From Candidatus Scalindua sp. (GTDB lineage Bacteria > Planctomycetota > Brocadiia > Brocadiales > Scalinduaceae): a DNA stretch of 32,000 nucleotides. A model generated the notes under the pieces. The model was not told where the DNA came from and ran no database searches. It was given only the letters and a program-made list of their open reading frames with translations. The stretch covers positions 1,350,001 through 1,382,000 of the forward strand of contig JALDRA010000001.1 in NCBI GenBank assembly GCA_031316235.1, written 5' to 3'. Position numbers and translations under genes: made by a program. Positions 1,159-31,797 of the stretch are shown here, one piece after another (the first letter of the stretch is position 1; each line of letters opens with the position of its first letter).

Positions 1159-1270
1159 TATACTCATCTCATACTGGATTTCGGATAAAATCCGAGATAA
1201 AATTGAGCGAGTATACCTTCACCAGGATTTGGTTTCCGGTAAAACCGAAAACCAAATCGGTTTTAGTATA
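1159..1270 (-). repeat. Two-hairpin mosaic repeat, complete copy (R1), reverse orientation
   Basis: TATACTCATCTCATACTGGATTTCGGATAAAATCCGAGATAAAATTGAGCGAGTATACCTTCACCAGGATTTGGTTTCCGGTAAAACCGAAAACCAAATCGGTTTTAGTATA. Near-identical to the copies at 6551, 28072 and 30774. GTATAC-type sites at 1158-1163 (ATATAC), 1211-1216 and 1266-1271. It lies 24 bp downstream of the glnN stop. Confidence 0.9.
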
Positions 1271-1294
1271 CCTGTTTCTTACCCGGCGGAAAAA

Positions 1295-3403
1295 CTACAA
1301 TGAGAACAAGATATCAGCATACGTTGGTACCGGCCACAGCCTCCGGGGGATAATTGCCTCCAGCTTATCAATATCTCCCCGCAAATCATTCATAGTCACC
1401 AATACTTTTTCCCTGTATTCAGTTGCCCGTTTAAAACCATGAGATACATCGTGTGGAATCTGGTATGCGTGCTCTAACTCAGCCTCCAGTTTCTCTGCCT
1501 TCCGATATGCTGATTCCAGAAGGGCCGAAACCTTGGCAAGCAGCTCTTTCTGGACCACCGAGGATCCTTTCACTGCTTCCAGATACTGGATCGTTTCTGC
1601 AAGCTCACTTGTATACTGTATAACTGCGGGGAAATACAGACTTTTCACCATATCAAGAGAAGCCCTGGCTTCGATGTTAATCTGCATAGAGTACAGATCA
1701 ATATAAATTTCATACCGGGCATGCACCTCTCCTTTTGTAAGTATCTTATACTTTTCAAACAAATCTATCGATTTTTTGTCAGTAAAATTCTTAAACGCTT
1801 CTATTGTGGTACGTAAATTCGGTAATCCCCGCCTCTCAGCCTCTCTGGTCCAATCATCTGAATAGTTATTACCATTAAAGATGATTCTCCCATGCTCCTT
1901 CATAATATCCCCGATGATTGCTTTTGTCTCCTGGTGGATATCCTTCGCTTTCTCCAGACGGGTTGCCATCTCATCAAGCGCTTCCGCCACTATAGTATTC
2001 AATACAATACTCGGACCCGAAATCGTATTTGATGAGGGAACCATTCGAAACTCAAATTTATTACCCGTAAAGGCGAATGGAGAGGTCCTGTTTCTATCAC
2101 TGTTATCTTTTGGTAAAGGAGGCATGGTATCAACGCCTATTTCAATGCTCATAGAGCTTTTTGAAGTTGCTTCCTCTCCCTTCGCAATTGACTCTAAAAT
2201 CTTCGTTAACTCCTCTCCCATAAAGATCGAAATAATTGCGGGCGGAGCCTCATTTGAACCAAGACGGTGATCATTACCTGAATTCGCTGCGGACCTTCTC
2301 AATATATCTGCGTGGCGGTCAACGGCCTTAATAAGTGCGCAGATCATAAGCAGAAACTGTGCGTTATCGTGTGGAGTCTTCCCTGGTTCAAGCAGATTCA
2401 TCCCGTTATCAGTGATTAACGACCAGTTTAAATGCTTCCCGGAACCATTAATCCCAACATAGGGTTTTTCATGGAGAAGGCAGACAAGACCATGCCTGAG
2501 TGCAACTTTATCCAGAATCTCCATGACAAGCTGATTTTGATCTGCGGCTATGTTTGTTGTGGTAAAAATCGGGGCCATCTCAAACTGCGACGGAGCAACT
2601 TCATTATGCTTTGTTGTTGCCGCAATCCCCAGCTTCCATAACTCTTTATCAACGTCCTTCATGAAATGGGCAATACGGTCCTTAATCTGTCCGAAATAGT
2701 GATCTTTCATCTCTTGCCCTTTTGGTGCCAGTGCACCAAAAAGAGTTCTTCCTGCAACGATCAAATCCAATCTTTTTTTATACATATCCTTATGTATTAA
2801 GAAATACTCCTGTTCCGCACCAACCGTTGAAGTAACTTTCCTGGCTGTTTTATTCCCCAATGCACGTAAAAAGCGAAGAGCCTGTTTTGAAACAGCATTC
2901 ATTGATCGCAGTACAGGTGTTTTCTTGTCCAGAGCCTCTCCCTTGTACGAACAGAACGCTGTCGGAATGCACAGGGTAACCCCTCCGGCTCCATCTTCTT
3001 TTAAAAAAGCAGGAGACGTATAGTCCCAGGTGGTATATCCTCGCGCTTCAAAGGTGGCCCTGAGTCCGCCGCTCGGAAGGCTTGATGCATCAGGTTCTCC
3101 CTTTATAAGCTGTTTCCCTGAAAATTCCATAACCACTCCACCCTGCTCGGTTGTTGCAATAAACGAATCGTGTTTCTCTGCGGTACTCCCGGTCAATGGT
3201 TGAAACCAATGGGTATAATGGGTAGCGCCTTTTTCAATTGCCCAATCTTTCATGGCATTTGCAATAACATCTGCCGCCCTCGATGGTAAAGAGACATTTT
3301 TATCAATAGACTGCTTGAGCAGTTTATACGTATCTCTCGGCAATCTTTTTCTCATCGTTTCATCATTAAATACGTTTAAACCGAATATCTTTGTGACATC
3401 CAT
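1295..3403 (-). CDS. glnN: Glutamine synthetase, type III (GlnN-like), ~702 aa
   Basis: Its length of about 700 aa and N-terminus (FGLNVFNDETMRKRLPRDTYKLL...ATHYTHWFQPLTGSTAEKHDSF) match type III GS as I recall it from the Bacteroides and cyanobacterial GlnN proteins. Start moved from 3457 to the ATG at 3403, which is preceded by AAAGGAGAAGAGGAATG. A strong promoter lies inside the longer ORF version. Confidence 0.9.
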   Translation of the reverse strand: MDVTKIFGLNVFNDETMRKRLPRDTYKLLKQSIDKNVSLPSRAADVIANAMKDWAIEKGATHYTHWFQPLTGSTAEKHDSFIATTEQGGVVMEFSGKQLIKGEPDASSLPSGGLRATFEARGYTTWDYTSPAFLKEDGAGGVTLCIPTAFCSYKGEALDKKTPVLRSMNAVSKQALRFLRALGNKTARKVTSTVGAEQEYFLIHKDMYKKRLDLIVAGRTLFGALAPKGQEMKDHYFGQIKDRIAHFMKDVDKELWKLGIAATTKHNEVAPSQFEMAPIFTTTNIAADQNQLVMEILDKVALRHGLVCLLHEKPYVGINGSGKHLNWSLITDNGMNLLEPGKTPHDNAQFLLMICALIKAVDRHADILRRSAANSGNDHRLGSNEAPPAIISIFMGEELTKILESIAKGEEATSKSSMSIEIGVDTMPPLPKDNSDRNRTSPFAFTGNKFEFRMVPSSNTISGPSIVLNTIVAEALDEMATRLEKAKDIHQETKAIIGDIMKEHGRIIFNGNNYSDDWTREAERRGLPNLRTTIEAFKNFTDKKSIDLFEKYKILTKGEVHARYEIYIDLYSMQINIEARASLDMVKSLYFPAVIQYTSELAETIQYLEAVKGSSVVQKELLAKVSALLESAYRKAEKLEAELEHAYQIPHDVSHGFKRATEYREKVLVTMNDLRGDIDKLEAIIPRRLWPVPTYADILFSL

Positions 3404-3445
3404 TCCTCTTCTCCTTTGGTTATACACTTTTTCCAATGTTGTGCG

Positions 3446-3475
3446 ATTATACACCACAATAAACTATTTTGTCTA
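3446..3475 (-). promoter_or_regulatory. Sigma-70-type promoter candidate for glnN
   Basis: Minus-strand reading is TAGACA (3475-3470), an 18-nt spacer, then TATAAT (3451-3446), about 43 nt upstream of the ATG at 3403. The -10 element sits inside the palindrome TTGTG-N11-CACAA (3439-3459). Confidence 0.5.
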
Positions 3476-3677
3476 TGGATACTTTGAAAAAATTGTGACA
3501 GTAGCAATAACCCTTTTTTGAATTGATTTTATCGGAGGGATTGTTCGATTTCGGGTTTCTGTTTGGAAATCAGGATTGATATCCTTGTAACATAATTGAA
3601 ATTATAGTAAAGTGATATATACTATTCTAACCGCTTACAGGAAACACCATTATGCAGATTCCCAGCAGGAGAAAACG

Positions 3678-4223
3678 ATGAAAAAATACCGGCACTCAAT
3701 TATCTTATTCATTATTCTGTTCGGATGTTCTCAAGGGAGCAAAGCTGACACCATTGACGATTTTATCATGAACATCAATCCAGAACTGAAAAGGGAAGAG
3801 GCGATACGGTTCGCAATGGAAAAGACCTTTGAAATGCAATCACAAAATACTCTTAAAAGAATCCTGACACTGTTTTCCAACAGTGCAGCTGACATCAAGA
3901 TCGTAGCAGAATCTATCGGATTGCGGCAGGAAATGTCAGACACAATTATTCATGCCCTTGGTTACATCTTCGCTAAAGACATCGTATCCGAGGGAATATA
4001 CGGCATTGAAGAGATCAGAGAATATACAGCACAGATAGATGCTGACAGGCAAAGTTTTAGAGAGATAATAGAAGGGATGAAATTGGAGATTGAATTGAGA
4101 AGAAGGAGAGAACGCAGTAAAATAATCAGAGAGCTGATCAATGCAGGCTTCCCGCCAAATATTGCAGAAAAGGCTGCCGAACTTGAAGAGAAAGATAATC
4201 TGCCGGCAAAGACTGATGATTAG
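3678..4223 (+). CDS. Hypothetical lipoprotein (181 aa)
   Basis: Start moved to ATG 3678, preceded by AGGAGAAAACGATG. The N-terminus MKKYRHSIILFIILFGCSQG has a signal peptide and a lipobox LFGC. The rest is charged and helical with no recognised family. Confidence 0.6.
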   Translation: MKKYRHSIILFIILFGCSQGSKADTIDDFIMNINPELKREEAIRFAMEKTFEMQSQNTLKRILTLFSNSAADIKIVAESIGLRQEMSDTIIHALGYIFAKDIVSEGIYGIEEIREYTAQIDADRQSFREIIEGMKLEIELRRRRERSKIIRELINAGFPPNIAEKAAELEEKDNLPAKTDD

Positions 4224-4385
4224 TTCCTTTTATTAAGCAAAAAGCGTTTAACGCGGCGGCTGGCAGGGAAACAAAGCGTCAACCACAAACACTCTCGAAT
4301 GGCCCTGTATTGCACCTGAGACTTGATAAACACTCAACCGGGATTATCGTTAGCAAGCTGGTAATAAACTGGCTGCAGTGCGTAT

Positions 4386-4418
4386 GGTTGAGCAGGCGAA
4401 AGAGCCACCTGCTCAACC
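4386..4418 (+). other. Strong hairpin in a 558-bp non-coding gap
   Basis: GGTTGAGCAGG (4386-4396) pairs perfectly with CCTGCTCAACC (4408-4418) across an 11-nt loop. It is followed by AAGGAG (4424-4429) and an 18-codon ORF at 4436-4492. Confidence 0.4.
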
Positions 4419-4682
4419 CGTAAAAGGAGAAGAAAATGTTTTTAACATTTACAGGAATTAAAACATTTTTCAGTTCCTATTTGTTCCCGTAAATTATTTT
4501 TTTTTTACACCATGGCAAAAAACGGGTTCAAGCAGACACTCCAAAATGAAGAAAATCAGAGGCTGCCCGCCTGATTGAAGCAGGAGGAGGGGGATCCCTC
4601 GCGGCTACAAAGGCAGGCTATATAGTTATTTAAACCAAAACTACCCATCTACCGCGTTGCGCTAATAATTCGTCAATCATCA

Positions 4683-4748
4683 GGTATACTCATCTCTCCC
4701 ATAGATAACGATACAGATCATCTGAGGGTGCCATCCTGAGATGAGCAC
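4683..4748. repeat. Repeat-family variant (R9): module-B termini in inverted orientation around a different core
   Basis: Begins GGTATACTCATCTC (4683-4696) and ends GAGATGAGCAC (4738-4748). The core holds an imperfect hairpin, TCATCTGAGG...CCTGAGATGA. It lies 34 bp downstream of the stop of the 461-aa gene. Confidence 0.55.
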
Positions 4749-4781
4749 GGTTCAGCACCTATTGTCAATAAAATCAGAACG

Positions 4782-6167
4782 TTATGAATTCGCCTGAATC
4801 CTTTGCCCCATCTGAACAAGCTCCGACTTCTCGATACAATTGCTTCTAAAATCAGGATTGGATAAATATTCAAAGAGGGGGCAAATTGCTTTTTTTCTAC
4901 TCCTCCTTATACCTTCGTCACGAGAATAATTGATAATTTTGGTGAAACTTTCCCACCTCGGAGAAATGCTCTCTACCTCAATCTTCTCTACTTCAACACT
5001 CCCTGCCTTTTCTACCCTTATACCATAGGTTAAAGAACGATTGGTGATAATGAGCAATGCGCGCGCTCTATCGAAGTAAATCTCTGGGAATCTTGGTCTG
5101 GCATTTCTAAACAGATTCATTGTCACATTAACTTTTCCAACAATTTCCTTTGCCTGTGTTATCGGAACGTCTCCAAAAAGAGAGAATGCATATGAAGAAA
5201 ACTTCTCTGGAGGCTGTTCGGCAATAATACGGACCTTGTGGTTCGGAAAAAGTCCGACCATAACGACTTTGTCCATGGTTTTGCGATAATCCCAGTAATA
5301 GGGTAACATTATACTTCGGTCATCCTTGTCTGGTCCATAGAATACATCCCTCTTTCTTTTCCCTTGACCATCACCTTTTCTGAAAATAACCCCTATTTCC
5401 CATAAGAGCTGTTTAAAATCATGCGACTTCGCGAACAGCTGAGGATCAAATCGGGCACTTAACCTGCCAATGTAAACTTCCGGATTACCCTGAAACATCA
5501 CTCGCACATTCTTCAAGGAGAATAGATGTTTCCGGCCATTATGAATAATTATATACTGAAAACTCTTCCCAAAATCCTCAACAATAGAGAGAGGAACATA
5601 TTCTCCCGATTGTAGTCTTCCCAGGCAATTCAACCGGGCATGATTCTTCACCAGACTAATGGCCGCCTCCATTTCAGCTTCGTTATCATTCATTACAACC
5701 TGAGAATCGATAAAATGATTAACAATCTCACCCATTGTGCCATGGTACTTTTCCGGCACTTCGTGTTGCATCAACGTAGTAAGCCATTTCTCAGGTATCT
5801 TCCCCCGGGTTGGAAAGGAGGAGTGCGTTCCTGTTGCAGCCTCTTTTTTTGGTTGAGAAATTTCTTTTTTTGAATGTAACGTCTGTATCTCTTGGATGAT
5901 TGTAACTGCTTCGCGCACGCTATCCTTATTTTGTAAGGCATGCAGATTGCCGATCCACGGTTTTACACGCAGGTGCCTCCCGCCGCTTCTCTTTAACAAC
6001 TTGAGATTTTTTACTATCTCTCTATCTTTGGCTTTGATGATTTTCGATTTTTCAGGATTTCCCGTTTGAGAAGCCTCTCTATCAATTTTCTTTTCAGTTT
6101 TTTTCAATTTCCCTTTCTCGACCTCCTTTCCTGTGCTTATTGACCCGTCCAGTTTGGGTGGCAGCAT
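4782..6167 (-). CDS. Hypothetical protein, 461 aa, Lys-rich N-terminus, no family recognised
   Basis: Long uninterrupted ORF with protein-like composition. The N-terminal ~120 aa are K/E-rich (KGKLKKTEKKIDRE...KIIKAKDREIVKNLKLLKR), followed by a globular part. I recognise no catalytic motif. Confidence 0.7.
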   Translation of the reverse strand: MLPPKLDGSISTGKEVEKGKLKKTEKKIDREASQTGNPEKSKIIKAKDREIVKNLKLLKRSGGRHLRVKPWIGNLHALQNKDSVREAVTIIQEIQTLHSKKEISQPKKEAATGTHSSFPTRGKIPEKWLTTLMQHEVPEKYHGTMGEIVNHFIDSQVVMNDNEAEMEAAISLVKNHARLNCLGRLQSGEYVPLSIVEDFGKSFQYIIIHNGRKHLFSLKNVRVMFQGNPEVYIGRLSARFDPQLFAKSHDFKQLLWEIGVIFRKGDGQGKRKRDVFYGPDKDDRSIMLPYYWDYRKTMDKVVMVGLFPNHKVRIIAEQPPEKFSSYAFSLFGDVPITQAKEIVGKVNVTMNLFRNARPRFPEIYFDRARALLIITNRSLTYGIRVEKAGSVEVEKIEVESISPRWESFTKIINYSRDEGIRRSRKKAICPLFEYLSNPDFRSNCIEKSELVQMGQRIQANS

Positions 6168-6550
6168 CAGGAATCATACTACAGATTTACCATTAACTTA
6201 TTCGCCGTCACTATGCGCCCCTGTATTCAGGACATTACCTGAGTACTATACAAAATATATCACCATTGTAAAACCTTTATTTCGTAAAGCCGCTGGCAAT
6301 CGCAGATCCTGAACCATATGCAGGCAGAAATCAGATGCACTGGAAAAAAGGGCAGTGAACTTGAAACCGGAGCGCACCGTTTAATGATGAAATATTGGAC
6401 AATCCCTGATTATCAGAACCGGAATGGCCCGTTTCATCAGCCGATATGTCCCTCCTGGTTTGTGTCAAATAGTGAACGTCAAGAATTTTGTAGTAATAAA
6501 AGCCCTCAAATGTTAAATAATATGGTGTTATCAAATGTGTGAAGCGAATA

Positions 6551-6692
6551 TATACTAAAACCGATTAGGTTTTCGGTTTTACCGGAAACAAAATCTTGGT
6601 GAAGGTATACTCGCTCAAATTTTTCTCGGATTTTATCCGAAAACCATTGTGAGATGAGTATACCATTAACCAGGCTTTGGTTCTTACCAAGG
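6551..6692 (+). repeat. Two-hairpin mosaic repeat, complete copy (R2, 6551-6662) plus an adjoining partial module-A-like hairpin (6664-6692)
   Basis: TATACTAAAACCGATTAGGTTTTCGGTTTTACCGGAAACAAAATCTTGGTGAAGGTATACTCGCTCAAATTTTTCTCGGATTTTATCCGAAAACCATTGTGAGATGAGTATA. The module-A stem carries two mismatches, consistent with a decaying copy. It is followed by AACCAGGCTTTGGTTCTTACCAAGGG, which matches the module-A variant seen at 27357 and 14820. The region ends 8 bp before the GNAT::deacetylase start codon. Confidence 0.9.
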
Positions 6693-6699: not shown

Positions 6700-8445
6700 A
6701 TGATCAGAATAAGAATTTTAAGAGATACCGGTTCTCTTTTATCCAGTGACCGGGTGAAACAGATTCAGGAAATCTTTGCACAAAGCTTCCCAAAGCTGGC
6801 AGGCTACGCGGAAAAGATTCCGCTGCTGATACGTGATCCCATCCGCAACAGATACTGTACAATCCTGGTTGTAGCTGAAGGCGCTCTGGGACGGGTGGAT
6901 GGGTTTGCCCTTGTCATGCATTTCCCTGAGATAAATTGCTGCTTTCTGGATTTCATAGCCACACGATCAGGATTGCGTGGCAGGGGAGTAGGGAGCGCAC
7001 TCTATGAGGCGGTCAGTGAAAACTGCAGAAACCTTTCCGTTAAAGGACTCTATTTTGAAGCGCAGCCTGATCTACCGGATTTGACCCCCGACCCATCAGA
7101 GTTAAAACAGGCAGGGATAACCATCCGTTTTTACGAACTGCACGGCGTAAGGGTAATAGAGAATCACGCATATTCTGTTCCTGTAGGTGATCCTCCTACA
7201 ACCGCCATTCTGTTATTCGACGGCCTGGGGATTACCCATACCCTTGCAAGGGAGGAGGCCCGGGAGGCGATTAAGATTATTCTTACAACCCGTTTTGCCA
7301 AGGCTACCGATTCAGAGTACGTTGACCGGGTTATTGAATCCTTCAGGGACGATCCTGTTAATTTCCGTCCTCTTCGTTACATAAAAGCCGTTAAGGAGCC
7401 CCTGTTAATACGCAATTTTAACTCCCCTCTCGCGTATACTTCCGTGTTCAGCCCTAAACACGAAATTCATCATGTCAAGGAACGTGGATATTTCGAACGC
7501 CCGATACGGGTGGAAGTCATTCGGGAGGTTATCGGCGACATTGGCGATTTTGTATCAGCTGCTCCGCGTGAATACGGCGAGAAATGGATCCTTGCTGTTC
7601 ACGATAAAATATTTGTTCATTACCTTCGTACGGTTTGCGCTTCACTGCGGCAGGGACGGCCTGTATACCCGGATACTTTTCCTATCAGGAGGCCGGATAA
7701 TCGGCCAAAGGAGTTGCCGGTACAGGCTGGCTATTATTGCATTGACACCGGAACTCCTTTGTACGCAAATGCTTACATAGGGGCACGCGCAGCGGTAAAT
7801 ACAGCCCTGACAGGCGCGGATGAAATCCTGTCCGGAAAACGGCTGGTATACTCGATATGCCGGCCTCCCGGCCATCATGCCGGAAAACGTTTCTTCGGCG
7901 GATTCTGTTACTTTAATAATGCGGCTATCGCGGCAAACTATCTCAGCCGGGAGGGAAAGGTGGCTATTCTTGATATTGATTTTCATCATGGCAACGGCAC
8001 CCAGGATATCTTTTATCACAGGAAAGATGTCCTGACCGTATCTATCCATGGCCATCCTGATTACTCATATCCCTATTTTTCCGGTTATGAGTCTGAAAGA
8101 GGGGAAGGGGAAGGAGTAGATTTCAATCGGAATTTCCCCCTGCCTCCGCGGACAGAGAATGATAAATATCTTCGTGTGTTTGATAAAGCGGTAAATTTGA
8201 TCTTGAACTTCAAGCCGGATATCCTGGTTGTCTCTCTCGGATTTGATATCCTTAAAGGAGATCCGACAGGCACGTTTCTTTTGAGTCCTAAAATATTTGA
8301 GAGTATTGGAAGCCGCCTGATATCGACAAAGAAACCTTTGCTTGTTGTTCAGGAAGGAGGCTACAACATCAGGGGCATACGCAACGGATCAAGAGCTTTT
8401 TTTAAAGGCTGCAGAGAAAAAAAGGGGAGTTCAATTCTCCATTAG
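6700..8445 (+). CDS. Fusion protein: N-terminal GNAT acetyltransferase domain plus C-terminal histone-deacetylase/acetylpolyamine-amidohydrolase family domain (581 aa)
   Basis: GNAT motif A is present (LRGRGVGSALYEAV) in the first ~175 aa. Deacetylase signatures are intact: RPPGHHAGKRFFGGFCYFNNAA, ILDIDFHHGNGTQDIFY, VVSLGFDILKGDP, VVQEGGYN. Single uninterrupted ORF. Confidence 0.85.
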   Translation: MIRIRILRDTGSLLSSDRVKQIQEIFAQSFPKLAGYAEKIPLLIRDPIRNRYCTILVVAEGALGRVDGFALVMHFPEINCCFLDFIATRSGLRGRGVGSALYEAVSENCRNLSVKGLYFEAQPDLPDLTPDPSELKQAGITIRFYELHGVRVIENHAYSVPVGDPPTTAILLFDGLGITHTLAREEAREAIKIILTTRFAKATDSEYVDRVIESFRDDPVNFRPLRYIKAVKEPLLIRNFNSPLAYTSVFSPKHEIHHVKERGYFERPIRVEVIREVIGDIGDFVSAAPREYGEKWILAVHDKIFVHYLRTVCASLRQGRPVYPDTFPIRRPDNRPKELPVQAGYYCIDTGTPLYANAYIGARAAVNTALTGADEILSGKRLVYSICRPPGHHAGKRFFGGFCYFNNAAIAANYLSREGKVAILDIDFHHGNGTQDIFYHRKDVLTVSIHGHPDYSYPYFSGYESERGEGEGVDFNRNFPLPPRTENDKYLRVFDKAVNLILNFKPDILVVSLGFDILKGDPTGTFLLSPKIFESIGSRLISTKKPLLVVQEGGYNIRGIRNGSRAFFKGCREKKGSSILH

Positions 8446-8467
8446 GCGTATATAAATCAATAAGGAC

Positions 8468-8513
8468 AAGTTTTTCTCGGATTTTATCCGAAATCCAGTA
8501 TGAGATGAGTATA
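8468..8513 (+). repeat. Solo module B of the repeat family (R3)
   Basis: TTTTTCTCGGATTTTATCCGAAATCCAGTATGAGATGAGTATA is identical to the right half of the 28072 copy. No module A is present. It starts 23 bp after the GNAT::deacetylase stop. A degenerate GTATATA at 8448-8454 may be the inner boundary. Confidence 0.8.
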
Positions 8514-9372: not shown

Positions 9373-9447
9373 TTTCTGGCATTCTGATAAACCAATCCTT
9401 TTGCTTGCCAGTATGTAGACATAATACTGTTTTTCACATCGATTACT

Positions 9448-9990
9448 TTATTTTACCCTTTTTGTTTGTTTCCTCTTCAGTTTTGGCTTGGCGACTGCAT
9501 TGTAAATGGCAAAGGAATCTCTCTTTGTGAGTTTTCCCTGGCAAAAAGATTTTGCGGGATCTACGATGAGCTGACGCATTGCTTCGCGTCCCAGTAACAT
9601 GCGGTAGCTCATAAAATCTCGATTGGTAAGAGTGATATAAATAGTTTGACGCAGGCTGCCGATCTGGATGACACTGCAGATAACATAGCGGCTCTCTTTC
9701 TGACCATTTGAGCTCTTTATCACCCGCTCGCCAGCTACTTCAGCTATGCAGTGCCTGCTGATGCAATTGTTGTTCTGTAATGGATGGATATTGAAGCGGA
9801 CATAACGTTTTCCGAGTTTATAAAATACTGTTACATCAAATGCGTGCAATGCAGATGTCTTTGCACCCGTATCAATTTTCACTTTTATGGCGGGAATACA
9901 GAGTTCCGGAAGTCTTGCCCACTCTCTCCAGCCTACCACCACCTTACTCAGATTTAGATTTTGCTCATTTGTCCGCTTTTTCCGTGCCAT
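9448..9990 (-). CDS. RimB-like retropepsin-type protease (family annotated as putative ATP-dependent zinc protease, DUF785/COG4067), 180 aa
   Basis: VVGWREWARLPELCIPAIKVKIDTGAKTSALHAFDV carries the D-T-G-A aspartic-protease signature in the context typical of RimK-associated proteins. Confidence 0.75.
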   Translation of the reverse strand: MARKKRTNEQNLNLSKVVVGWREWARLPELCIPAIKVKIDTGAKTSALHAFDVTVFYKLGKRYVRFNIHPLQNNNCISRHCIAEVAGERVIKSSNGQKESRYVICSVIQIGSLRQTIYITLTNRDFMSYRMLLGREAMRQLIVDPAKSFCQGKLTKRDSFAIYNAVAKPKLKRKQTKRVK

Positions 9991-20335: not shown

Positions 20336-20411
20336 TGCAAAATACTATTATTACCATGCATCTTTGTCAATAAAATTTTCTTGCGGGAACGTATTTAATC
20401 AGGGAAAAACA

Positions 20412-21102: not shown

Positions 21103-21143
21103 GTCTTTTTCTCCCCATATTTTGCTGGTTCCATCGGTCAAAT

Positions 21144-23444: not shown

Positions 23445-23498
23445 TGGAATTTTCACCTTTACCCTTTCAGACAAAAAATGTAGGCATAACGTAATATT

Positions 23499-24380: not shown

Positions 24381-24394
24381 GAGTTAGATTCCAT

Positions 24395-25228
24395 TTACGT
24401 TTTAAAATCTATGGCATGTGTCTCAATAACAACATGCACCCTAGTATCAGGCATATTATTCGTCACATCTGCGGCTGCACCCATCAATCTTATTTTGTTC
24501 AGTTTTCCCTCTATATTTACCGTATCTATTTCAAAACAGAGTTTTGAGTTTAATAACTCATGAATAAAAGCAAGTATCTGTTCAATATCCATAGTTACTT
24601 TTATAGAACAGGGGATGATGTCATAAAACTTCGACGCTGTACCTGCAGGAGACAGATCACCTTCCTGGAAACGAATACTTTCAATGCGGTTTATTTTCAG
24701 CTCTTTCTTTTTCATTATCCCCAACAACTCTTTCACAATCCAGAATCTCTTCTGCTCTCTCACAATGCTGTCCCACGTGGGGATTTCATCACCCCATTCT
24801 TTAAAAGAGAGTGTTCCCTTGCTTACCGGCAGATTACTCCCTGCCATAGTGCCAAGAAGAACATCTGTATTCTCTATATACCTGCTTTTCCAGAGGGCCA
24901 CATCTGTAATTTCCTCTTCATCTTCAAAACCAAATATCTTTTCGAGAGAGAGATCTCTTTTCGCAAATAACTCAATATTTTTCTGTTTCTCCTCTTTTGT
25001 TCTATCCAATTTCTCCTCTTCAGCTTTAATCCATTGCCGGTTTATAATTCCCAGGCCTTTTTTCTCATATCTCTCCAGCTCTGATAATATACGTTCCAGG
25101 GACTCAACTTGTTTCCTGTTTTCAAGCCTGTATGGGTTAGCAAGGAAAACGTATAGAAACGAAAGAAACGCAACTATTCCTCCTGTAATAAACCAGAATG
25201 CATTTTTTTTTATTATCACTATATTCAT
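24395..25228 (-). CDS. Hypothetical bitopic membrane protein (277 aa), PilO-like architecture
   Basis: An N-terminal TM (FWFITGGIVAFLSFLYVFL) is followed by a coiled-coil-like charged region and then a globular domain. It sits directly after the PilM::PilN gene. Confidence 0.6.
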   Translation of the reverse strand: MNIVIIKKNAFWFITGGIVAFLSFLYVFLANPYRLENRKQVESLERILSELERYEKKGLGIINRQWIKAEEEKLDRTKEEKQKNIELFAKRDLSLEKIFGFEDEEEITDVALWKSRYIENTDVLLGTMAGSNLPVSKGTLSFKEWGDEIPTWDSIVREQKRFWIVKELLGIMKKKELKINRIESIRFQEGDLSPAGTASKFYDIIPCSIKVTMDIEQILAFIHELLNSKLCFEIDTVNIEGKLNKIRLMGAAADVTNNMPDTRVHVVIETHAIDFKT

Positions 25229-25252
25229 CTTGATTATCTCTTCCGGAATTAG

Positions 25253-26992
25253 TTAGAAATACTCGTTAATTGTGTTTACTATCCATCGTATTTCAAAGGC
25301 AATACCTCTCATATTCTGACTGATCTCCAAACCACCTGATCTGTTCCGGACAAGCAATGGAATATTGTAAATCGACCCCTTCACAAACTCTACATCCCTA
25401 AAGGAGGGGGATTCATTTTGAAATAATTTCAGATTCGCGATGGGGATTTTAACCCTCTCCTCTAAATATTGCATACCTGGGTCATTACTTTCTCCCTTCA
25501 TAGTCATGACTAAAACTTTCCCACCAGCGTCTACAGGTTTTCCTGCTTTCTTTTTTCGAGAAGAATCATTTTTATTGTTTGATCCATCCATGTAAGGGTG
25601 TTGCATTGACGAATTCAAGCTTAACAAATGAACTTTCTCCGGCATAATCTCAATGATAGTACGAATAGACTCTATCCAGAAACTCCCTTTCGTTCCTATC
25701 GTCGTCAAAGCCCGGAGATCTTCTTCTTCCAGCTCAACCTTCTTTTCTACGTCCAGATACGCCCTTTCAAAATTTTTCACTTTCTTCTGTGTTTCGCTGA
25801 TGGTATTCATGTCCCTTGATAGAGCTCTTGAAGACACATAATCCTTAATACCCTGCGTAAGCAACCCGAAGAAAAGTAAACACACAAGTGTTGCAACCAT
25901 CTCCTTTTGTCTTGGTTTCTGCCGTTCCCTCATGTATTCCAGGGGAAGGAGATTTATTTTTATCTTACTAACACCCAAACCTTGCACTGCAAGACCTATT
26001 GCTGTCCCAAAACTATGAATTGCTTTTTTGTTTTGAACTGCAGAATCCACCTCTTCTGCTATCTCAATACTATCCAATACGTTAAGAAAATGAACTTTCC
26101 CTTCTAGGTTTTCTCTCACAAATTTTACTTTATCATCATCCTTTAATCCTTCTCCCATTAAGAATATGTTTTCAGGCTTTGTATCCTTTGCAATCGAAAC
26201 ATAGTATCCTATTGACCTCTGTATTTCCCGTACCAGATCCATATTCATTTCAGAAATCGGAATGCTCCTGTTCCAATACTTTGATTTTCCAGCAACAATG
26301 AAATCCGTACTATCTTTCTGAACATTTACGACGAAAATATCCTCATCCTGTTCGCACAACAACTGCACAAGATTATAAATTGCTATCGGATTAATTTGTA
26401 TGGCCTCAATGTTCGATTTTATCGGCGTGAGGCTTGACAAAACGCTATAAATGTTTTCCTTTTTCGTGGCAAAAATACCAATTTCAGGTCCATTTCCACT
26501 TTTTGAACTGTCACTGAATTGATGATAATCCCATACAATTTCACTCGAATCAAAAGGAACCTGCTTTTGCAGCTCATATTTTATCGCGTCAACAATCTGA
26601 CCTTTCTTCATGGGAGGAAATGAAACAAACCTTGATAAAACCATCTTGGCAGGGAGCGATACCACTATTCTCTCAGATTTCTCAATTTCATTGCGAGTTA
26701 CGAAATTGTTTATTGCATTTTCAACTATTTCTGCATTTGTAGTGGCAGCACTCTGGTTCATTGTTGAAATTTCAACTCTATCAATCGCCTCTACCAGCAA
26801 TTTTCCATTATGCAATTTAACCTTTGTCGCCTTTAATTCACTGTCACCAATTTCCAGACCCCAGGCACTCTTACTCTTTGCTCTTTTTCCTGAACGAAAA
26901 TATTTTACCGAGTAATTTCCAGATTTCATGTTATTAAGGATATTTTTCATCTTCATATTCTGATAAAAAAAAGTGATGGTCATTTCACACAC
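25253..26992 (-). CDS. PilM::PilN fusion (type IV pilus / T2SS-like inner-membrane assembly platform), up to 579 aa; start uncertain (GTG 26992, ATG 26983, 26956 or 26950)
   Basis: PilM actin-like N-terminus (AWGLEIGDSELKATKVKLHNGKLLVEAIDRVEI...SLPAKMVLSRFVSFPPMKKGQIVDAIKYELQKQVPF). Then the PilN hallmark INLLPLEY with a TM (MVATLVCLLFFGLLTQGI) and about 190 further residues. Confidence 0.8.
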   Translation of the reverse strand: MCEMTITFFYQNMKMKNILNNMKSGNYSVKYFRSGKRAKSKSAWGLEIGDSELKATKVKLHNGKLLVEAIDRVEISTMNQSAATTNAEIVENAINNFVTRNEIEKSERIVVSLPAKMVLSRFVSFPPMKKGQIVDAIKYELQKQVPFDSSEIVWDYHQFSDSSKSGNGPEIGIFATKKENIYSVLSSLTPIKSNIEAIQINPIAIYNLVQLLCEQDEDIFVVNVQKDSTDFIVAGKSKYWNRSIPISEMNMDLVREIQRSIGYYVSIAKDTKPENIFLMGEGLKDDDKVKFVRENLEGKVHFLNVLDSIEIAEEVDSAVQNKKAIHSFGTAIGLAVQGLGVSKIKINLLPLEYMRERQKPRQKEMVATLVCLLFFGLLTQGIKDYVSSRALSRDMNTISETQKKVKNFERAYLDVEKKVELEEEDLRALTTIGTKGSFWIESIRTIIEIMPEKVHLLSLNSSMQHPYMDGSNNKNDSSRKKKAGKPVDAGGKVLVMTMKGESNDPGMQYLEERVKIPIANLKLFQNESPSFRDVEFVKGSIYNIPLLVRNRSGGLEISQNMRGIAFEIRWIVNTINEYF

Positions 26993-27043
26993 TCACGAAG
27001 AGTATGAGCAGGAGTTCTGTCAACCAAAATAAGAAATTTACCG

Positions 27044-27259
27044 TTATGAATCTGTTATCACCTCAAGACTTTTTTCATCACTCAGTGTTGACGGCTGTTC
27101 TGTACCAAAGAAATAATCAATGTCCTGATGTAATAACTGCATATCTTTCTTAAACATACGGTTATGTGCTGCATTGTGGCGCATATCAGATGTGTAGCAT
27201 CCGGAAATACATGCAGAAGCTGCCAGTAAAATAATATAATCTTTGAGGAGTTTGAGCAT
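27044..27259 (-). CDS. Small lipoprotein (71 aa), first gene of the secretin operon
   Basis: RBS AGGAAAGATAAAATG. Signal peptide plus lipobox (ILLAASACISGC). Confidence 0.5.
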   Translation of the reverse strand: MLKLLKDYIILLAASACISGCYTSDMRHNAAHNRMFKKDMQLLHQDIDYFFGTEQPSTLSDEKSLEVITDS

Positions 27260-27356
27260 TTTATCTTTCCTAAAAAACTATAAAACTAAAAGTATGTTAA
27301 GCTGGTGTAAGGTTCTCTGAAAATAAATATCGTTAGTATCGTTTATTTATCATAGT

Positions 27357-27469
27357 TATACTGAAACCGGTTTGGTTTTATGTTTTTCTAAAAACCAAAG
27401 CCTGGTTGCTGATACACTCGCTCCGTTTTTTCTCGGTTTTTATCCGAAATCCAGTATAAGATGAGCATA
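27357..27469 (+). repeat. Divergent complete copy of the repeat family (R5)
   Basis: TATACTGAAACCGGTTTGGTTTTATGTTTTTCTAAAAACCAAAGCCTGGTTGCTGATACACTCGCTCCGTTTTTTCTCGGTTTTTATCCGAAATCCAGTATAAGATGAGCATA. Same ends and architecture as the other copies, but module A has a different inner stem and loop. It lies about 100 bp upstream of the operon start. Confidence 0.8.
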
Positions 27470-27505
27470 CATACCTGAAACAGATTATCATGCTTGGCAG
27501 GGAGT

Positions 27506-27918
27506 TTATTCGCAAACATAATGCCGTTTAGTTTTCTTTTTTTTGAGAGTACTAAGGACTCCTTGGTATACAATATAAAACACTTTGCAGAATTCATTGT
27601 TACCAGTACTCATGCTAAACCCTGTTGTGCTGTCTAATAAATCGACAGATCGAAGTGTTTTGCCATAGCGGTCTCCTGTTTTACATGCCAGTGTGAGTTT
27701 ATTACGAAAGGAATGCGTTATCACCATAATATCAATATATAAAGAGGGTAACTATGGTCCTCATTGTACACACTGACATCCTTGAACTTTGTACGATTAT
27801 TGTGAGAATCATGAAGTTCCGTAAGATTGATTATCACCGCTACCTCATCAGGTAGCTCTTCCAGCTTAAGCCACTTTGCCCCACTGTCTCTGAGTATTCC
27901 GGTATTGCAACAAACCCT
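27506..27918 (-). pseudogene. Possible decayed gene remnant between two repeat copies
   Basis: Two adjacent minus-strand open frames are offset by one frame. 27918-27724 has no start codon and translates to ...NTGILRDSGAKWLKLEELPDEVAVIINLTELHDSHNNRTKFKDVSVYNEDH.... 27727-27506 is the 73-aa ORF in the track. Neither matches a family I recognise. Confidence 0.2.
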
Positions 27919-28071
27919 CTATGCCTTTAACAGCTGGATATTTTCCTTGTAATAATTTTAGTAGCGTGCGGGGAGAACGACAGACATGAAAAACAAACAT
28001 ACTAGTGAGGATACTGATACCCTCTCTCTTGAAACAGAGGAGAACTGAAGGAGAACTGAAATTAGCAGAGA

Positions 28072-28183
28072 TATACTAAAACTGATCTGGTTTTCGGTTT
28101 TACCGGAAACCAGATCCTGGTGAAGGTATACTCGCTCAATTTTATCTCGGATTTTATCCGAAATCCAGTATGAGATGAGTATA
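28072..28183 (+). repeat. Two-hairpin mosaic repeat, complete copy (R6)
   Basis: TATACTAAAACTGATCTGGTTTTCGGTTTTACCGGAAACCAGATCCTGGTGAAGGTATACTCGCTCAATTTTATCTCGGATTTTATCCGAAATCCAGTATGAGATGAGTATA. It ends 5 bp from the decarboxylase stop codon (28189-28191). Confidence 0.9.
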
Positions 28184-28188
28184 CCGCA

Positions 28189-29499
28189 TTAAACAGAAGC
28201 GCTGATTGACTGCTCGTTATACTGAATTCCATTTGAGGCCTTCATAACCTTAATCTCATTATCCATTACAAAAACCTCAGAAGGAAGATTGTGTGACAAA
28301 AAGAGTAAAGGGCTTGCCGTTACTCCATAGGCTCCAGAATTTAAAATGCCAATGAAATCGCCGATCCGGACCTCTGGCAGCAGTATATCAGTTGCAATCC
28401 TGTCAATGGGCGTGCACAAAGGTCCAACAATGTGTACCTTTTCCAGTTCATTCCTGTTGTGTATTTCCAGCGGATACATGATGCTGTTTCTTCTCAAAAC
28501 CTGACCAAGGTTTCCTGAAGCAGCAAGGTGATGATTCATCCCTCCATCGAGTATGATGAACTTTTTCCCTCTTGAGGCCTTTATGTCTGTCACTTTCGCT
28601 ACGTAGACCCCACTCTGTGCCACCAGAAATCTGCCGAGTTCCAGGATAAACCGGGTGTTCCTGAGTTCAGGGGAAGTCTCTCGGGTATACGTTATGATTT
28701 CTTTTATCCCATTACATACTTCCAGTATATTCAATTCCCTGTCGCCCTCGTAGTAAGGGACACCGAATCCGCCACCTAAATTAATGCAGTTCAAGTCTAT
28801 GCCTTCATGGAGAAACAACCGTTTTGCTATCGCTATTGTTTCTGTAATATTCTCTATTATGGCCCTGGCATCCAGGCACTGTGTTCCGTTATATACGTGT
28901 ATTCCCCTAAGGTTCAGCAGACCGTGCTGCTTTATCATCTTTATTATTTCAGGCGCAATTTCTTCATCAATTCCGAATTGGGAAGGAACCCCTCCCATCT
29001 TGAGTAAAAATCTTTCCGGTTTACGGGTTGGATTTATCCGTAACATGATATTTGCTTTCAATGTTGTGGTTTTTACAATTTCAAGAATCTTCTCTATCTC
29101 CCTGCATGATTCAACGCTTATGGCAAATACCCTTTTTGTTATGGCTTCTGAAAGTTCTTTATTGCTTTTTCCCGGACCGGAAAAACTTATCGTCCCAGGT
29201 AAAATCCCCACACTCATGCATCGGGATAATTCACCCCCCGAAGAAATATCAACACCAGATTTAAGCGTTTTAAAAAGAGACAGGATCTCCCGTAGAGGGT
29301 TAGCCTTCACCGCATAGAAGATGTCCAGGTTCTCTGGCAGATGCTCCTCAAGGAGCCTGTACCTCTCTTTAATAGCTCTCGTAAAATAGAGATAGAATGG
29401 CCCTTCTACTTTACGGGCAATATCTAAAAGATCATGTCCACACATCTCAAGGTGGCTGAGTGTATTGATGCGAACAACTGAATTTTCCAGTAATTTCAT
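28189..29499 (-). CDS. PLP-dependent decarboxylase, group IV (diaminopimelate/ornithine decarboxylase fold), ~436 aa
   Basis: FYAVKANP (PLP lysine), NLGGGFGVPY and GPLCTPIDRIA. Start set to ATG 29499 (MKLLENS...) rather than the upstream GTG 29535. Its position after ACP and the ligase resembles the exosortase-associated decarboxylase family (recalled as TIGR03099; not verified). Confidence 0.85.
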   Translation of the reverse strand: MKLLENSVVRINTLSHLEMCGHDLLDIARKVEGPFYLYFTRAIKERYRLLEEHLPENLDIFYAVKANPLREILSLFKTLKSGVDISSGGELSRCMSVGILPGTISFSGPGKSNKELSEAITKRVFAISVESCREIEKILEIVKTTTLKANIMLRINPTRKPERFLLKMGGVPSQFGIDEEIAPEIIKMIKQHGLLNLRGIHVYNGTQCLDARAIIENITETIAIAKRLFLHEGIDLNCINLGGGFGVPYYEGDRELNILEVCNGIKEIITYTRETSPELRNTRFILELGRFLVAQSGVYVAKVTDIKASRGKKFIILDGGMNHHLAASGNLGQVLRRNSIMYPLEIHNRNELEKVHIVGPLCTPIDRIATDILLPEVRIGDFIGILNSGAYGVTASPLLFLSHNLPSEVFVMDNEIKVMKASNGIQYNEQSISASV

Positions 29500-29660
29500 A
29501 ATCTGCCAAAATAGCCTACCGGTGAGGCACTGCACCTGATAGTTCCGATAAAACCCGGTCTAACCGCGCCCTTGAGAGATTTCTGCCCGATAGATGTCAG
29601 GAATCTGCTCTGGTTAGAGTACTGTTCACAATTTAACTGTCAAATCAGCCGCATCCACCA

Positions 29661-31388
29661 TCAGTATAGACCGAAAGCGGCCTTCATACACTGCGAGGCT
29701 TCCTTTCGCAAGAGGGCCCTGTCTATCTTCCCGTTAGGGGTACACGGGATCGTTTCCCTGAATAGTATCTCTCCCGGAATCATGTAAGAAGGAATCGTAC
29801 CTCGTAAAAAATGTACTATTTCTTTTTTGGAACAGGCAGCACCCTCATTCAGGCTGACATAACAGACTATATCCTGTTCAAGATTCTCCTGTTCAACACC
29901 CACAGCAACTACACAACTAAATTTCCCCATACTCAGGAGAACCTCTTCGATCTCCGTCGGACTCACCCGGTAACCCATCTTTTTTATCATCTCATCCCGT
30001 CTTCCAACATAGTAAAGAAAACCCTCTTCGTCTGATTTTACCAGATCACCGGAGTAGACAACCTTCTCCGTAAGCAAGGTCTCTTTGGAGGCAAGAGGAT
30101 TCTGCCTGAACACCTCATCTGTCTTTACCGGATCATCCCAATATCCCAGGGATATCAATGCCCCACGGTGTACAAGTTCTCCAATTTCTCCCGGCCTGCA
30201 CGGCTTATCTTCTTTATCCAGAATATAAATCTCAACCCCGGGGATTGCCTTTCCGATAGAGTCCGGTCTAGACCTTACTAACGATGGGTCCAGGTACGTT
30301 GACCTGTGTGCCTCAGTTAAGCCATACATCAAATACAATTGAGTTTCAGGGAAGAGATCCAAAAGTCTGAATATAGTCTGCCTGGAAAGTTTCCCGCCGG
30401 AATTGGTTATGTATCTCAGGTGTGCAAAATTATCATCCTCCCTCTTGTCCTTCATTTCTGCTATTCGATTCCAGATAACGGGTACTCCAGCAACACCCGT
30501 TATCTTCTGTGCTCCTATGACCTTCAACAGGTCTTCGGGAAAAAGAAAATCATGAAGCACAATCGTCCCGCCTACTTTAATCGTTGTGAGCAACTGGTCT
30601 AAACCATAATCGAAACTGAAGGGCAGGATACTGAGAACAATGTCATCACTATTCATATTCAGATAATTCGAAATTATTTCTGCACCATCCATCAGGTTTT
30701 GGTGGGTAGTCATTATCCCTTTTGGAGAACCGGTACAACCAGAGGTATACATGATTGTTGCAAGATCTGAAGGTATACTAAAACCGATTTGGTTTTCGGT
30801 TTTACCGGAAACCAAATCTTGGTTAATGGTATACTCGCTCAAATTTATCTCGGATTTTATCCGAAATCCAGTATGAGAGGAGTATATACAGACGGTTTCA
30901 ATCAAGCAGTTCTTACTCTCTTCAGGGAGCCCACAAACGGACAGTACCTTTTCTGATCGAATCTCCGGAACAGGTTCAGCGTTTTCTTCAAAAAGGAATA
31001 TTCTTGAGATGGAGGTAAATCTACGTCCCACATAATCAACAGTTCTCAGTTTAAGGCTGTTACTGATGAGTAGTTTTATCCCGCAATCATTTGAAATATG
31101 TTCCAACTGGCTCTCTTTTAAAACGGGATTTAATAAAACGAATATCCCGCCAGCTTTAACAATTGCGAAAATAGATATTGCCTCTTCGATGGATTTTGGA
31201 AGATAGAGACCGATCCGATCTCCCTGTTTTGCGCCATTTTCCCGCAGCAATACTGCAAGCTTGTCGGATAATTCATCAAGTTCTCTGTATGTTATGGATT
31301 TAGAGCCAGAAACAATGGCCTTTTTCTCTGAAAACCCTGCACAGGAGTCTCTAAGAATTGCCTGTGTTGTCATATTCGATTGATACAT
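29661..31388 (-). CDS. Adenylate-forming acyl-CoA/ACP ligase (AMP-binding family) carrying an in-frame repeat insertion; start uncertain (31388 or 31373; track gives TTG 31430)
   Basis: Core motifs are intact: IVKAGGIFVLLNP, MYTSGCTGSPKG, LMYGLTEA, YSGDLV, GRRDEMIKKMGYRVSPTEIE, PNGKIDR. Residues ~181-220 (CIYSSHTGFRIKSEINLSEYTINQDLVSGKTENQIGFSIP) are the translation of the repeat at 30774-30889. Confidence 0.85.
   Translation of the reverse strand: MYQSNMTTQAILRDSCAGFSEKKAIVSGSKSITYRELDELSDKLAVLLRENGAKQGDRIGLYLPKSIEEAISIFAIVKAGGIFVLLNPVLKESQLEHISNDCGIKLLISNSLKLRTVDYVGRRFTSISRIFLFEENAEPVPEIRSEKVLSVCGLPEESKNCLIETVCIYSSHTGFRIKSEINLSEYTINQDLVSGKTENQIGFSIPSDLATIMYTSGCTGSPKGIMTTHQNLMDGAEIISNYLNMNSDDIVLSILPFSFDYGLDQLLTTIKVGGTIVLHDFLFPEDLLKVIGAQKITGVAGVPVIWNRIAEMKDKREDDNFAHLRYITNSGGKLSRQTIFRLLDLFPETQLYLMYGLTEAHRSTYLDPSLVRSRPDSIGKAIPGVEIYILDKEDKPCRPGEIGELVHRGALISLGYWDDPVKTDEVFRQNPLASKETLLTEKVVYSGDLVKSDEEGFLYYVGRRDEMIKKMGYRVSPTEIEEVLLSMGKFSCVVAVGVEQENLEQDIVCYVSLNEGAACSKKEIVHFLRGTIPSYMIPGEILFRETIPCTPNGKIDRALLRKEASQCMKAAFGLY
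30774..30889 (+). repeat. Two-hairpin mosaic repeat, complete copy (R7), located inside the ligase CDS
   Basis: TATACTAAAACCGATTTGGTTTTCGGTTTTACCGGAAACCAAATCTTGGTTAATGGTATACTCGCTCAAATTTATCTCGGATTTTATCCGAAATCCAGTATGAGAGGAGTATATAC. Same family as 1159, 6551 and 28072. Module A is 1 nt longer than in the 28072 copy, and there is an extra TA at the right end. Confidence 0.9.
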
Positions 31389-31626
31389 TTTTTTTTGCCA
31401 GGAGTTTGCCGATTGCATCGATCGTTTCAAAATTTCTGTGTGTCATATCATCAGTTGTGAATTCCACCCCATACACTCTCTGCAGATGAGCAACAAGTTC
31501 AAGGATATTCATCGAATCCAACAATCCACTTTCCAATAAGGATTCACGTATAGTGATACCGGTTTCCTGAGGTGTGACATCAAGAAAAGATAAAATTTCT
31601 GATTTTAGTTTTGCAATCGATGTCAT
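31351..31626 (-). CDS. Acyl carrier protein (91 aa)
   Basis: Phosphopantetheine attachment context GLLDSMNILELVAHLQRVYGV. Its 3' end overlaps the ligase start region, suggesting coupled translation. Confidence 0.8.
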   Translation of the reverse strand: MTSIAKLKSEILSFLDVTPQETGITIRESLLESGLLDSMNILELVAHLQRVYGVEFTTDDMTHRNFETIDAIGKLLAKKNVSIEYDNTGNS

Positions 31627-31760
31627 GTATTACTTTCCCAGGAATTCGCCAGACGTAACCATTACCCTGTTAGAATTTTTTAAAAAGCAATTTCTGGAAA
31701 TATCTGAAATGTTTCTCAACTCCTGCCAGAGAGAATCAAATAAAAACAAAAAACAGCGAT

Positions 31761-31797
31761 GGTATACTCATCTTATAGTGGGTTTCGTATAAATACC
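31761..31797 (-). repeat. Partial module-B-like fragment of the repeat family (R8)
   Basis: GGTATACTCATCTTATAGTGGGTTTCGTATAAATACC versus canonical GGTATACTCATCTCATACTGGATTTCGGATAAAATCC. It shares the CATCTTATA variant with the 14706 copy. It lies between the ACP promoter region and the sigma-54 activator stop. Confidence 0.5.

Follow-up and report, generated by a model that had tools for sequence, protein, structure and literature searches.

Among the small mobile repeats of bacteria, the pneumococcal RUP element (107 bp) is linked to the insertion sequence (IS) IS630-Spn1 through its TA targeting and the matching terminal repeats of the two (PMC2229807), and the Correia or NEMIS elements of Neisseria duplicate a TA, carry inverted repeats of ~24 bp and have no identified host transposase (PMC2229807, PMC10969869). 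A 32,000-nucleotide stretch of DNA from Candidatus Scalindua sp. (GenBank assembly GCA_031316235.1, contig JALDRA010000001.1, forward-strand positions 1,350,001 to 1,382,000; hereafter the window, whose own numbering is used below) contains copies of a repeat family, here called the TATAC family, whose members are 112-223 nt long and are built of two palindromic modules, A and B. Like RUP, the family is non-coding, ~110 bp in its simple form, present in at least ~100 copies, bounded by terminal inverted repeats and inserted at TA; with Correia/NEMIS it shares the TA duplication, the length of the inverted repeats and the lack of an identified host transposase. The evidence presented here makes it very probable that the TATAC family is a TA-inserting MITE, that is, a miniature inverted-repeat transposable element. 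By mechanism and size it is closest to RUP and Correia/NEMIS, in layout it is like the BOX element and in its genic copies like the Rickettsia palindromic element RPE, and no sequence relationship to any of these was seen.

The repeats of the window lie far beyond chance expectation: the 17-mer TCGGATTTTATCCGAAA, with up to two mismatches, occurs six times versus 0.00 times expected from 100 shuffles, and profile searches recover six full copies and two remnants (E-values from 1e-41 to 7e-5), so that the interspersed family proposed in an earlier sequence-only reading of this DNA is real. The family also extends beyond the window, as that reading had supposed. An exact 22-mer of module B is found in at least 119 further blocks of 8 kb in a collection of species-representative genomes and, among the matches listed, all are in metagenome-assembled genomes (MAGs) of Scalinduaceae, namely Ca. 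Scalindua sp. SCAELEC01, RBC_AMX3 and OFTM1, Scalinduaceae bacterium CBDCUS01 and Ca. Anammoxibacter OFTM134. The coding regions of the window are 82-86% identical to those of these MAGs, and the window comes from a further Scalindua species. Profile searches identified 202 element loci in 947 kb from six genomes, at least five of them Scalinduaceae genomes other than that of the window, the sample amounting to ~8-13% of each large MAG. After one bait copy per block is discounted, there is ~1 extra copy per 12 kb, which would probably correspond to a few hundred copies per genome.

No match to the family was found in Rfam or in plasmid, phage or viral-contig collections. In an Rfam scan of the window only tRNA-Met passes, and the best scores of a single element copy are 12-18 bits against thresholds of 33-100, in agreement with the earlier reading, which did not recognize the sequence as a described RNA family. 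A search of the literature on repeats of Scalindua or of anammox bacteria found nothing relevant, and the phylum is not among the hosts listed in a 2024 review of prokaryotic MITEs (PMC10969869). The family is a previously undescribed MITE in a new host group, belonging to an ordinary class of mobile DNA.

The ends of the element are sharp. In 120 full copies, conservation reaches 97-99% for TATAC at the left and GTATA at the right, whereas the A+T-rich DNA outside shows none. Every copy has the form TA-TAC...GTA-TA, in which the mobile unit spans TAC to GTA. Read from the consensus, the ends form a bipartite terminal inverted repeat consisting of the tip TACT, a 10-nt spacer and the inner block TGGTTTTCGG: the left end reads TACT-AAAACCGATT-TGGTTTTCGG and the right end, once reverse-complemented, TACT-CATCTCATAA-TGGTTTTCGG, identical at 14 of 24 positions in two equally spaced blocks. 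The GTATAC that had been taken for a module delimiter does mark sharp boundaries; it is, in fact, a TA duplication joined to the TAC and GTA tips of the element.

Comparison of filled with empty sites shows that the element inserts at TA and that the TA is duplicated, the outer TA of TATAC and GTATA being the duplication; the statement of the sequence-only reading that there is no target-site duplication is therefore wrong. The most direct case is the copy at 30774-30886, which is missing from a sister-strain contig (L121; ENA ERZ25039603) that is 97% identical to the window over positions 19703-32000. The empty site is GTCTGTATACCTTC (also read as GTCTGTATACCTTCAG) and the filled site is GTCTGTATA-TAC...GTATA-CCTTC, a net gain of 111 nt. 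Further cases come from insertions into a second MITE-like repeat family, R2 (~155 nt; 42 loci, mostly in SCAELEC01, for example L044 at ~4427-4585; at least two subfamilies), with ends TAGTGTTTGAACGAAAAC...GTTTCGTTCAAGCACTA and a central CCTTGTACCTGG that is a hot spot for insertion of TATAC-family elements. The empty form, CCTTG-TA-CCTGG, is present in more than 20 R2 paralogues, and four R2 copies have the filled form, CCTTG-TA-[TAC...GT(A/G)]-TA-CCTGG: L007 and L013, which are duplicates of one event, L107, which belongs to a different R2 subfamily, and L099, in which the element has the opposite orientation. Since the filled copies fall in two subfamilies and the element lies in either direction among them, one TA has been hit in three independent events. 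Overall, five filled-versus-empty comparisons document at least four independent insertions.

The family was active long ago and has been so recently: species can have insertions in common, as in L021 and L106, which have the same flanks, and other insertions differ between strains that are 97% identical. The intergenic region orthologous to the copy at 1159-1270 is ~108 nt shorter in L043, which is probably an empty site for this copy in DNA too diverged for the junction to be read. Decay is also visible: the remnant at 31761-31797 arose through internal deletion from a longer partial-A-C-C-B copy, which L121 still has (9440-9630). Elsewhere, short forms of 57 nt consist of the two end arms alone, and forms of 29 nt arose from deletion between AAAACC repeats.

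The window encodes no transposase or RAYT, as had been noted from the sequence, and none was found beside solo modules, which have ordinary gene neighbours, or among the multi-copy open reading frames (ORFs) of the element loci. A single metagenome scan, for which the two bases after the end motif were chosen so as not to match the MITE interior, returned ten contigs. Six of these carry a diverged MITE subfamily, two of them (L126 and L130) being syntenic with Scalindua loci at 71-81% identity; one (L135) has a partial end only; and three (L128, L131 and L133) carry the right end of one IS element at three different sites. The ORFs of this IS element contain HTH_23/HTH_33 and DDE_3 domains, and when joined they pass the NCBIfam IS630 equivalog model NF033545 (116.9 bits versus a cut-off of 100); the nearest relatives of the transposase are HTH plus DDE_3 transposases of 353 residues. 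The terminal 26 nt of the IS, TATACTCAAACCGAAATGGTTTTCGG, match the left end of the MITE at 23 of 26 positions, a figure partly forced by the search pattern. The IS630-like element is present at a TATATA site in L138 (JGI Ga0272440), where it interrupts an AAA_14 ATPase-like ORF, and absent from L137 (ENA ERZ27252164), in which this ORF is uninterrupted and the flanks are 100% identical; it therefore inserts at TA and has done so recently. Its left end was not recovered, the copy in L139 being without a left end and a relative with 70% amino acid identity (L136) stopping short of both ends.

The TA duplication and the similarity of the ends suggest that the mobiliser of the TATAC family is an enzyme of the IS630 family, an assignment towards which we lean and which follows the logic that connects RUP with IS630-Spn1. 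In both systems the mobiliser is deduced from similarity of MITE ends to an IS630 element, and both families insert in other repeats or IS elements. The differences are that RUP resides in another host phylum, has no visible sequence relationship to the Scalindua family and does not have a comparably modular interior, and that the matching IS for the Scalindua family was seen only in another organism rather than in the same genome.

The explanation that we consider likely as a whole is that of a TA-inserting MITE moved in trans by an IS630-family transposase, with decaying copies and a selfish mode of persistence. In this scheme a DDE transposase supplied in trans would bind the inner TGGTTTTCGG, cut at the tips and integrate the element at TA, the same mechanism as proposed for RUP with IS630-Spn1. 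The palindromic modules, zero to two copies of a C unit and optional tip hairpins define subfamilies and travel only within the element. Copies would decay through internal deletion between short repeats; selection would purge genic copies, except for rare ones of 113 nt, whose stop-free frame lengthens the gene by exactly 37 codons; and effects of the hairpins on neighbouring transcripts would be a by-product and not the reason for the family.

Several points weigh against this account, besides the partly forced end match and the small fraction of each genome that was sampled. Neither an IS630-family gene nor a homologue of the matching transposase was detected in ~970 kb of Scalinduaceae DNA by tblastn and ORF clustering. 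All three IS630-like copies seen are defective, being without the PPYSPELNP...E region that holds the third catalytic residue, and would therefore themselves have to be moved in trans. The contigs that host the IS have 32-36% GC, encode proteins 30-45% identical to those of Scalindua and contain no MITE copy in 12 kb, so that the IS and the MITE are not shown to share a genome. The junction of the insertion into the gene at 30774-30886 is ambiguous over 5 nt (GTATA), and in R2 the same TA was used three times; these sites hint that the preferred target extends beyond TA and is approximately TG-TA-CC.

An IS110-family element is a second candidate that was considered as mobiliser and rejected, since this 1.7-kb element sits inside unit C, uses the MITE as its target and is without MITE ends. 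Two nearly identical copies of it occur in RBC_AMX3 (L097 at ~3232-4953 and L059 at ~4498-6221); they interrupt separate MITE copies, whose flanks differ, and do so at an identical position in the C unit. Its product matches PF01548 (DEDD_Tnp_IS110) and PF02371 (Transposase_20); the ORF is frameshifted in L097, and the best NCBIfam match reaches only 96 bits, under the cut-off of 140 bits, because the ORF is split. The MITE thus appears to be a specific target for a recombinase of the bridge-RNA type.

The location of the copies relative to genes bears on whether the family could be kept for a function in RNA. The 154 classifiable copies are distributed over tandem, divergent and convergent intergenic regions in proportions of 60, 25 and 14%, compared with 60, 26 and 14% of intergenic length, although the gene calls behind these figures are crude (ATG-started ORFs of at least 90 codons, 69% coding) and count as a further point against our preferred account. 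In tandem regions 38 copies are oriented with transcription and 55 against it, with no strand preference, and no promoter or terminator consensus coincides with copies. Because placement tracks intergenic length and shows no strand preference, the copies are better understood as selfish DNA than as regulatory RNA; selfish insertions, tolerated where genes stay unbroken, would be distributed in this way. The claim that copies almost always lie near a start or stop codon does not survive this comparison: the copy at 30774 is inside a gene, and the proximity of others to codons reflects the shortness of intergenic regions and not targeting. In this respect the family is unlike Correia, which contains promoters as well as sites for IHF and RNase III and is found preferentially upstream of genes; in the TATAC family neither a promoter consensus nor a placement bias was detected, and the sequences of the two differ.

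Even so, the possibility that the repeats are structured non-coding RNA genes or cis-regulatory RNAs (terminators, mRNA stabilizers or small RNAs) maintained for their function has some observations in its favour. Both strands fold as two long hairpins (z about -6), with a very stable predicted RNA fold (-43 kcal/mol, z = -6.6), and across 41 distinct two-module copies 94% of the proposed pairs are retained, which upholds the two-hairpin architecture described earlier. The hairpin tips are TCGG-TTTTA-CCGG in A and TCGGA-TTT-ATCCGA in B. A few changes at the tip of hairpin A affect both sides of a pair (CGG/CCG, AGA/TCT and CAG/CTG), and two G-U pairs in the master sequence favour folding of the A-to-B strand. 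Other MITEs, such as Correia and ERIC, affect transcripts (PMC10969869). However, covariation is not decisive, being no better than in shuffled alignments on measures that count pairs or types, and a strand-specific excess of G-T over A-C, considered as evidence for RNA, was rejected as such, as it is driven by two inherited positions and is gone once these are removed. Together with the absence of orientation bias, the proportionality to intergenic length, the lack of a terminator or promoter signature or of any Rfam family near threshold, and the polymorphism of copies between strains that are 97% identical, some of them within coding sequence, this makes a function in RNA improbable as the reason for the family, and copies may have incidental effects on transcripts.

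Genic copies are rare (2 of 202, 1%). The element does not itself contain an ORF, and its consensus has two stop-free frames, both on the B-to-A strand. In the window, a full 113-nt copy (30774-30886, plus strand; recognized by profile search and translation) lies inside a gene for an AMP-forming acyl-CoA ligase (29661-31388, minus strand; Pfam AMP-binding and AMP-binding_C), whose product of 575 residues is 100% identical to a protein annotated by NCBI as an intact AMP-binding protein (P0001) and has close homologues, such as P0005, that are annotated as exosortase A-associated. The copy is in frame and is read on the antisense strand of the element, so that the net gain of 111 nt amounts to 37 codons. 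The added residues, IYSSHTGFRIKSEINLSEYTINQDLVSGKTENQIGFS, are located immediately before the SDLATIMYTSGCTGSPKG P-loop strand and are missing from all nine aligned homologues, one of which is 96% identical. An AlphaFold model of the ligase (mean predicted local distance difference test score, pLDDT, of 85; predicted template modelling score of 0.87) has pLDDT below 50 only over residues 167-206, a coil, and is consistent with a tolerated surface loop. A second, independent case is the HAD/Hydrolase_3 phosphatase of RBC_AMX3 (L111 at 6909-7844, minus strand), which contains an in-frame 113-nt copy at 7488-7601 encoding nearly the same peptide of 37 residues as the ligase of the window.

In-frame palindromic inserts in unrelated enzymes, with a conserved peptide that the fold tolerates, are also characteristic of RPE (PMC10969869), and the short form of Correia likewise has open reading frames and is found fused into genes. 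In some RPE families, however, nearly half of the copies are genic, compared with 2 of 202 here, and a target-site duplication is not established for RPE, whereas the mobility of the Scalindua family is demonstrated. A bolder proposal, to which we give little credence, is that the family is more than selfish DNA, in that the 113-nt form may be a ready-made cassette of 37 codons repeatedly fixed in enzymes as a functional surface loop, and that the interior may grow by structure-directed addition of GC-rich hairpins at stem tips; if true, such a way for MITEs to diversify and to tinker with proteins would have no described counterpart outside Rickettsia.

The interior of the element is modular, and the mosaic build of the Correia and MITE type that had been recognized from the sequence is confirmed. 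Module A consists of the left end and an inverted copy of the left end, and module B is built similarly; each is a unit of 55-57 nt bounded by TATAC...GTATA. An optional C unit of ~27 nt, CCCCGGAC(A)nGGCGCCGAGGACTTT, lies between A and B, and the length classes of 112-113, ~139 and ~166 nt among the 120 copies are due to the presence of zero, one or two C units. Some subfamilies carry GC-rich palindromes of 28-85 nt placed precisely on the tip of one hairpin, A or B, and another is found between A and C. The window lineage has its own module B consensus, which also speaks for recent activity of the family. Correia varies in length through an internal block in a comparable way (107 versus 155 bp, as against 112, 139 and 166 nt in Scalindua). 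The layout of BOX in Streptococcus pneumoniae is boxA-boxB(n)-boxC, fixed end modules with a variable count of a short middle module, to which the arrangement A-(C)0-2-B is analogous; the sequences are not the same, and BOX is not known to insert with duplication of a TA.

Such a construction might arise if modules A, B, C and others were separate mobile palindromes inserting into one another, with the 112-bp unit as a frequent cluster. The fact that A and B each have TATAC...GTATA boundaries and the exact placement of the extra hairpins at stem tips would fit this, as would the precedent of pneumococcal BOX, RUP and SPRITE, which insert into each other (PMC10969869). Nevertheless, it is very unlikely: the accessory units C, D, E1, E2 and F occur 86 times inside elements and never outside them, and 116 of the 202 loci are simple A-B elements and another 30 are A-B with a hairpin at the stem tip, with orientation and spacing fixed throughout. 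Pieces of A or B found alone, previously thought to be modules occurring independently, have one sharp and one ragged end and are therefore truncations. The cores described as swapped, at 27357 and 14820, reflect subfamily variation in the hairpin A tip; in some variants both partners of a pair have changed. The composite element may have originated through nesting long ago.

Elements of the REP/BIME type, spread by a RAYT (a Y1/HUH tyrosine transposase) acting on single-stranded hairpins, offer another comparison, suggested by the sequence-only reading. Like these, the TATAC elements are abundant extragenic palindromes, mosaic, present in both orientations and with strong hairpins on either strand, and the IS110-family insertions are reminiscent of REPs, which are reported to be landing sites of IS110-family elements (PMC1525189, PMC11208160). 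One Scalinduaceae MAG (CBDCUS01) also encodes a weak Y1_Tnp/RAYT-like protein of 186 residues (L098 at 2721-3281, minus strand), which scores 22 bits where the cut-off is 23 and has 22% identity with E. coli RayT. This gene contains an internal GTAGGGGCATGGCGCGCCATGCCCCTAC palindrome and is followed by a hairpin, GGGCAGGTTACAAACCTGCCC, both unrelated to the TATAC family. The REP/BIME explanation is nonetheless very hard to sustain, as the two systems differ in ends, size and insertion chemistry. TA duplication is not expected from HUH/Y1 transposition, and neither it nor inverted-repeat ends with a conserved tip are features of REPs; the family has no GTAG head and has units of 55-57 nt in place of a palindrome of 20-40 nt; and no RAYT is present in the window. 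A RAYT-based mechanism was rejected after tblastn and phmmer searches with E. coli RayT yielded only the one Y1-like gene; the GC-rich hairpin that flanks it is of another kind and does not recur in the loci, and its nearest TATAC-family copy is ~3.5 kb away. Derivation from IS200/IS605 in the manner of PATE elements, whose end hairpins lack a transposase and are moved as single-stranded DNA, is scarcely credible despite two subterminal hairpins with similar tips and the absence of a large terminal inverted repeat, given that IS200/IS605 elements insert without duplication and in one strict orientation, on the 3' side of a set tetra- or pentanucleotide, whereas the TATAC family duplicates TA, occurs in both orientations at the same site (L099 versus L107), has symmetric tips and has no TnpA or TnpB gene near any copy.

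Within the window, the TATAC-family MITE is embedded in ordinary chromosomal DNA encoding glutamine synthetase III, RimK, CofD, a secretin, PilM, ornithine decarboxylase, the acyl-CoA ligase and tRNA-Met. Two full A-B copies, at 1159-1270 (minus strand; 112 nt including both flanking TA; nhmmer E = 1.4e-41) and 28072-28183 (plus strand; E = 5e-41), are 97% identical; the former is located 24 nt 3' of the glutamine synthetase III stop codon and the latter 5 nt from the stop codon of the ornithine decarboxylase gene. Another full A-B copy (6551-6662, plus strand; E = 2.8e-39, supported by alignment) lies between divergent genes, 38 nt upstream of a start codon at 6700. The copy at 14706-14876 (minus strand) is an expanded A-C-C-B element of 171 nt, in which modules A (14821-14875) and B (14706-14760) both match the profiles and two C units are seen between them in the alignment. 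A full copy of a variant subfamily (27357-27469, plus strand; E = 7e-23) differs in the tip of hairpin A (TTTTATG-TTTTT-CTAAAA), and its orthologous place in L121 is also filled.

The partial copies comprise a 5'-truncated module B at 8467-8513 (plus strand; profile positions 11-57; E = 2e-14), for which inspection of the flanks shows a sharp right end (GAGTATA) and a ragged left end 22 nt past a stop codon at 8445, and a remnant of the right arm of module B at 31761-31797 (minus strand; E = 7e-5). A partial right arm of module A at 6664-6686 (minus strand; profile positions 33-55; inverted-repeat pairs) is marginal (E = 0.037); it adjoins the copy at 6551-6662, the two having GTATAC in common. 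Thus eight of the locations listed in the sequence-only reading stand, the one at 6664 is marginal, and two are not borne out: 12107-12131 has no profile match, and 4683-4748 has no significant profile similarity (E > 1) and only ~10-12 nt of the terminal motif in common with the family. The 62 nt at 4685-4746 are bounded by an 8-nt inverted repeat without mismatches, CTCATCTC...GAGATGAG, which agrees with the tip region of the family's right end; they may be a copy that has degenerated very far, or the resemblance may be coincidental.

Two further differences between related contigs were observed near the copy at 28072. In L121 an unrelated stretch of ~160 nt (13096-13262) occupies the place of this copy between the conserved GCGGTATA and TCTCTG; it was found nowhere else among the loci and amounts to a replacement, not a simple insertion. 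L087 was considered as an empty site for the same copy and set aside, its intergenic DNA being too diverged for the junction to be read. In L122, from a related Scalindua with 87% identity, the genes for acyl-CoA ligase and ornithine decarboxylase are separated by a PEP-CTERM-domain gene (2367-3194); the window and L121 are without it.

Scalindua accounts for much of the nitrogen lost through anammox in the sea, and all that is known of it comes from enrichments and MAGs. Short-read contigs (Logan and JGI) end inside MITE or IS630-like copies, as in L001 (window 28156-30798), L125 (from window 8489), L128, L131 and L133; the repeats therefore fragment Scalindua assemblies. The TATAC family shows ongoing transposition in slow-growing bacteria, offers insertion markers at the level of strains and provides landing pads for an IS110-family (bridge-RNA) element. 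At least two enzymes have been altered through in-frame insertion, adding another natural case of a MITE-derived peptide. The family does not constitute a new type of system, and its value lies in the annotation, assembly, strain typing and population genetics of anammox genomes.

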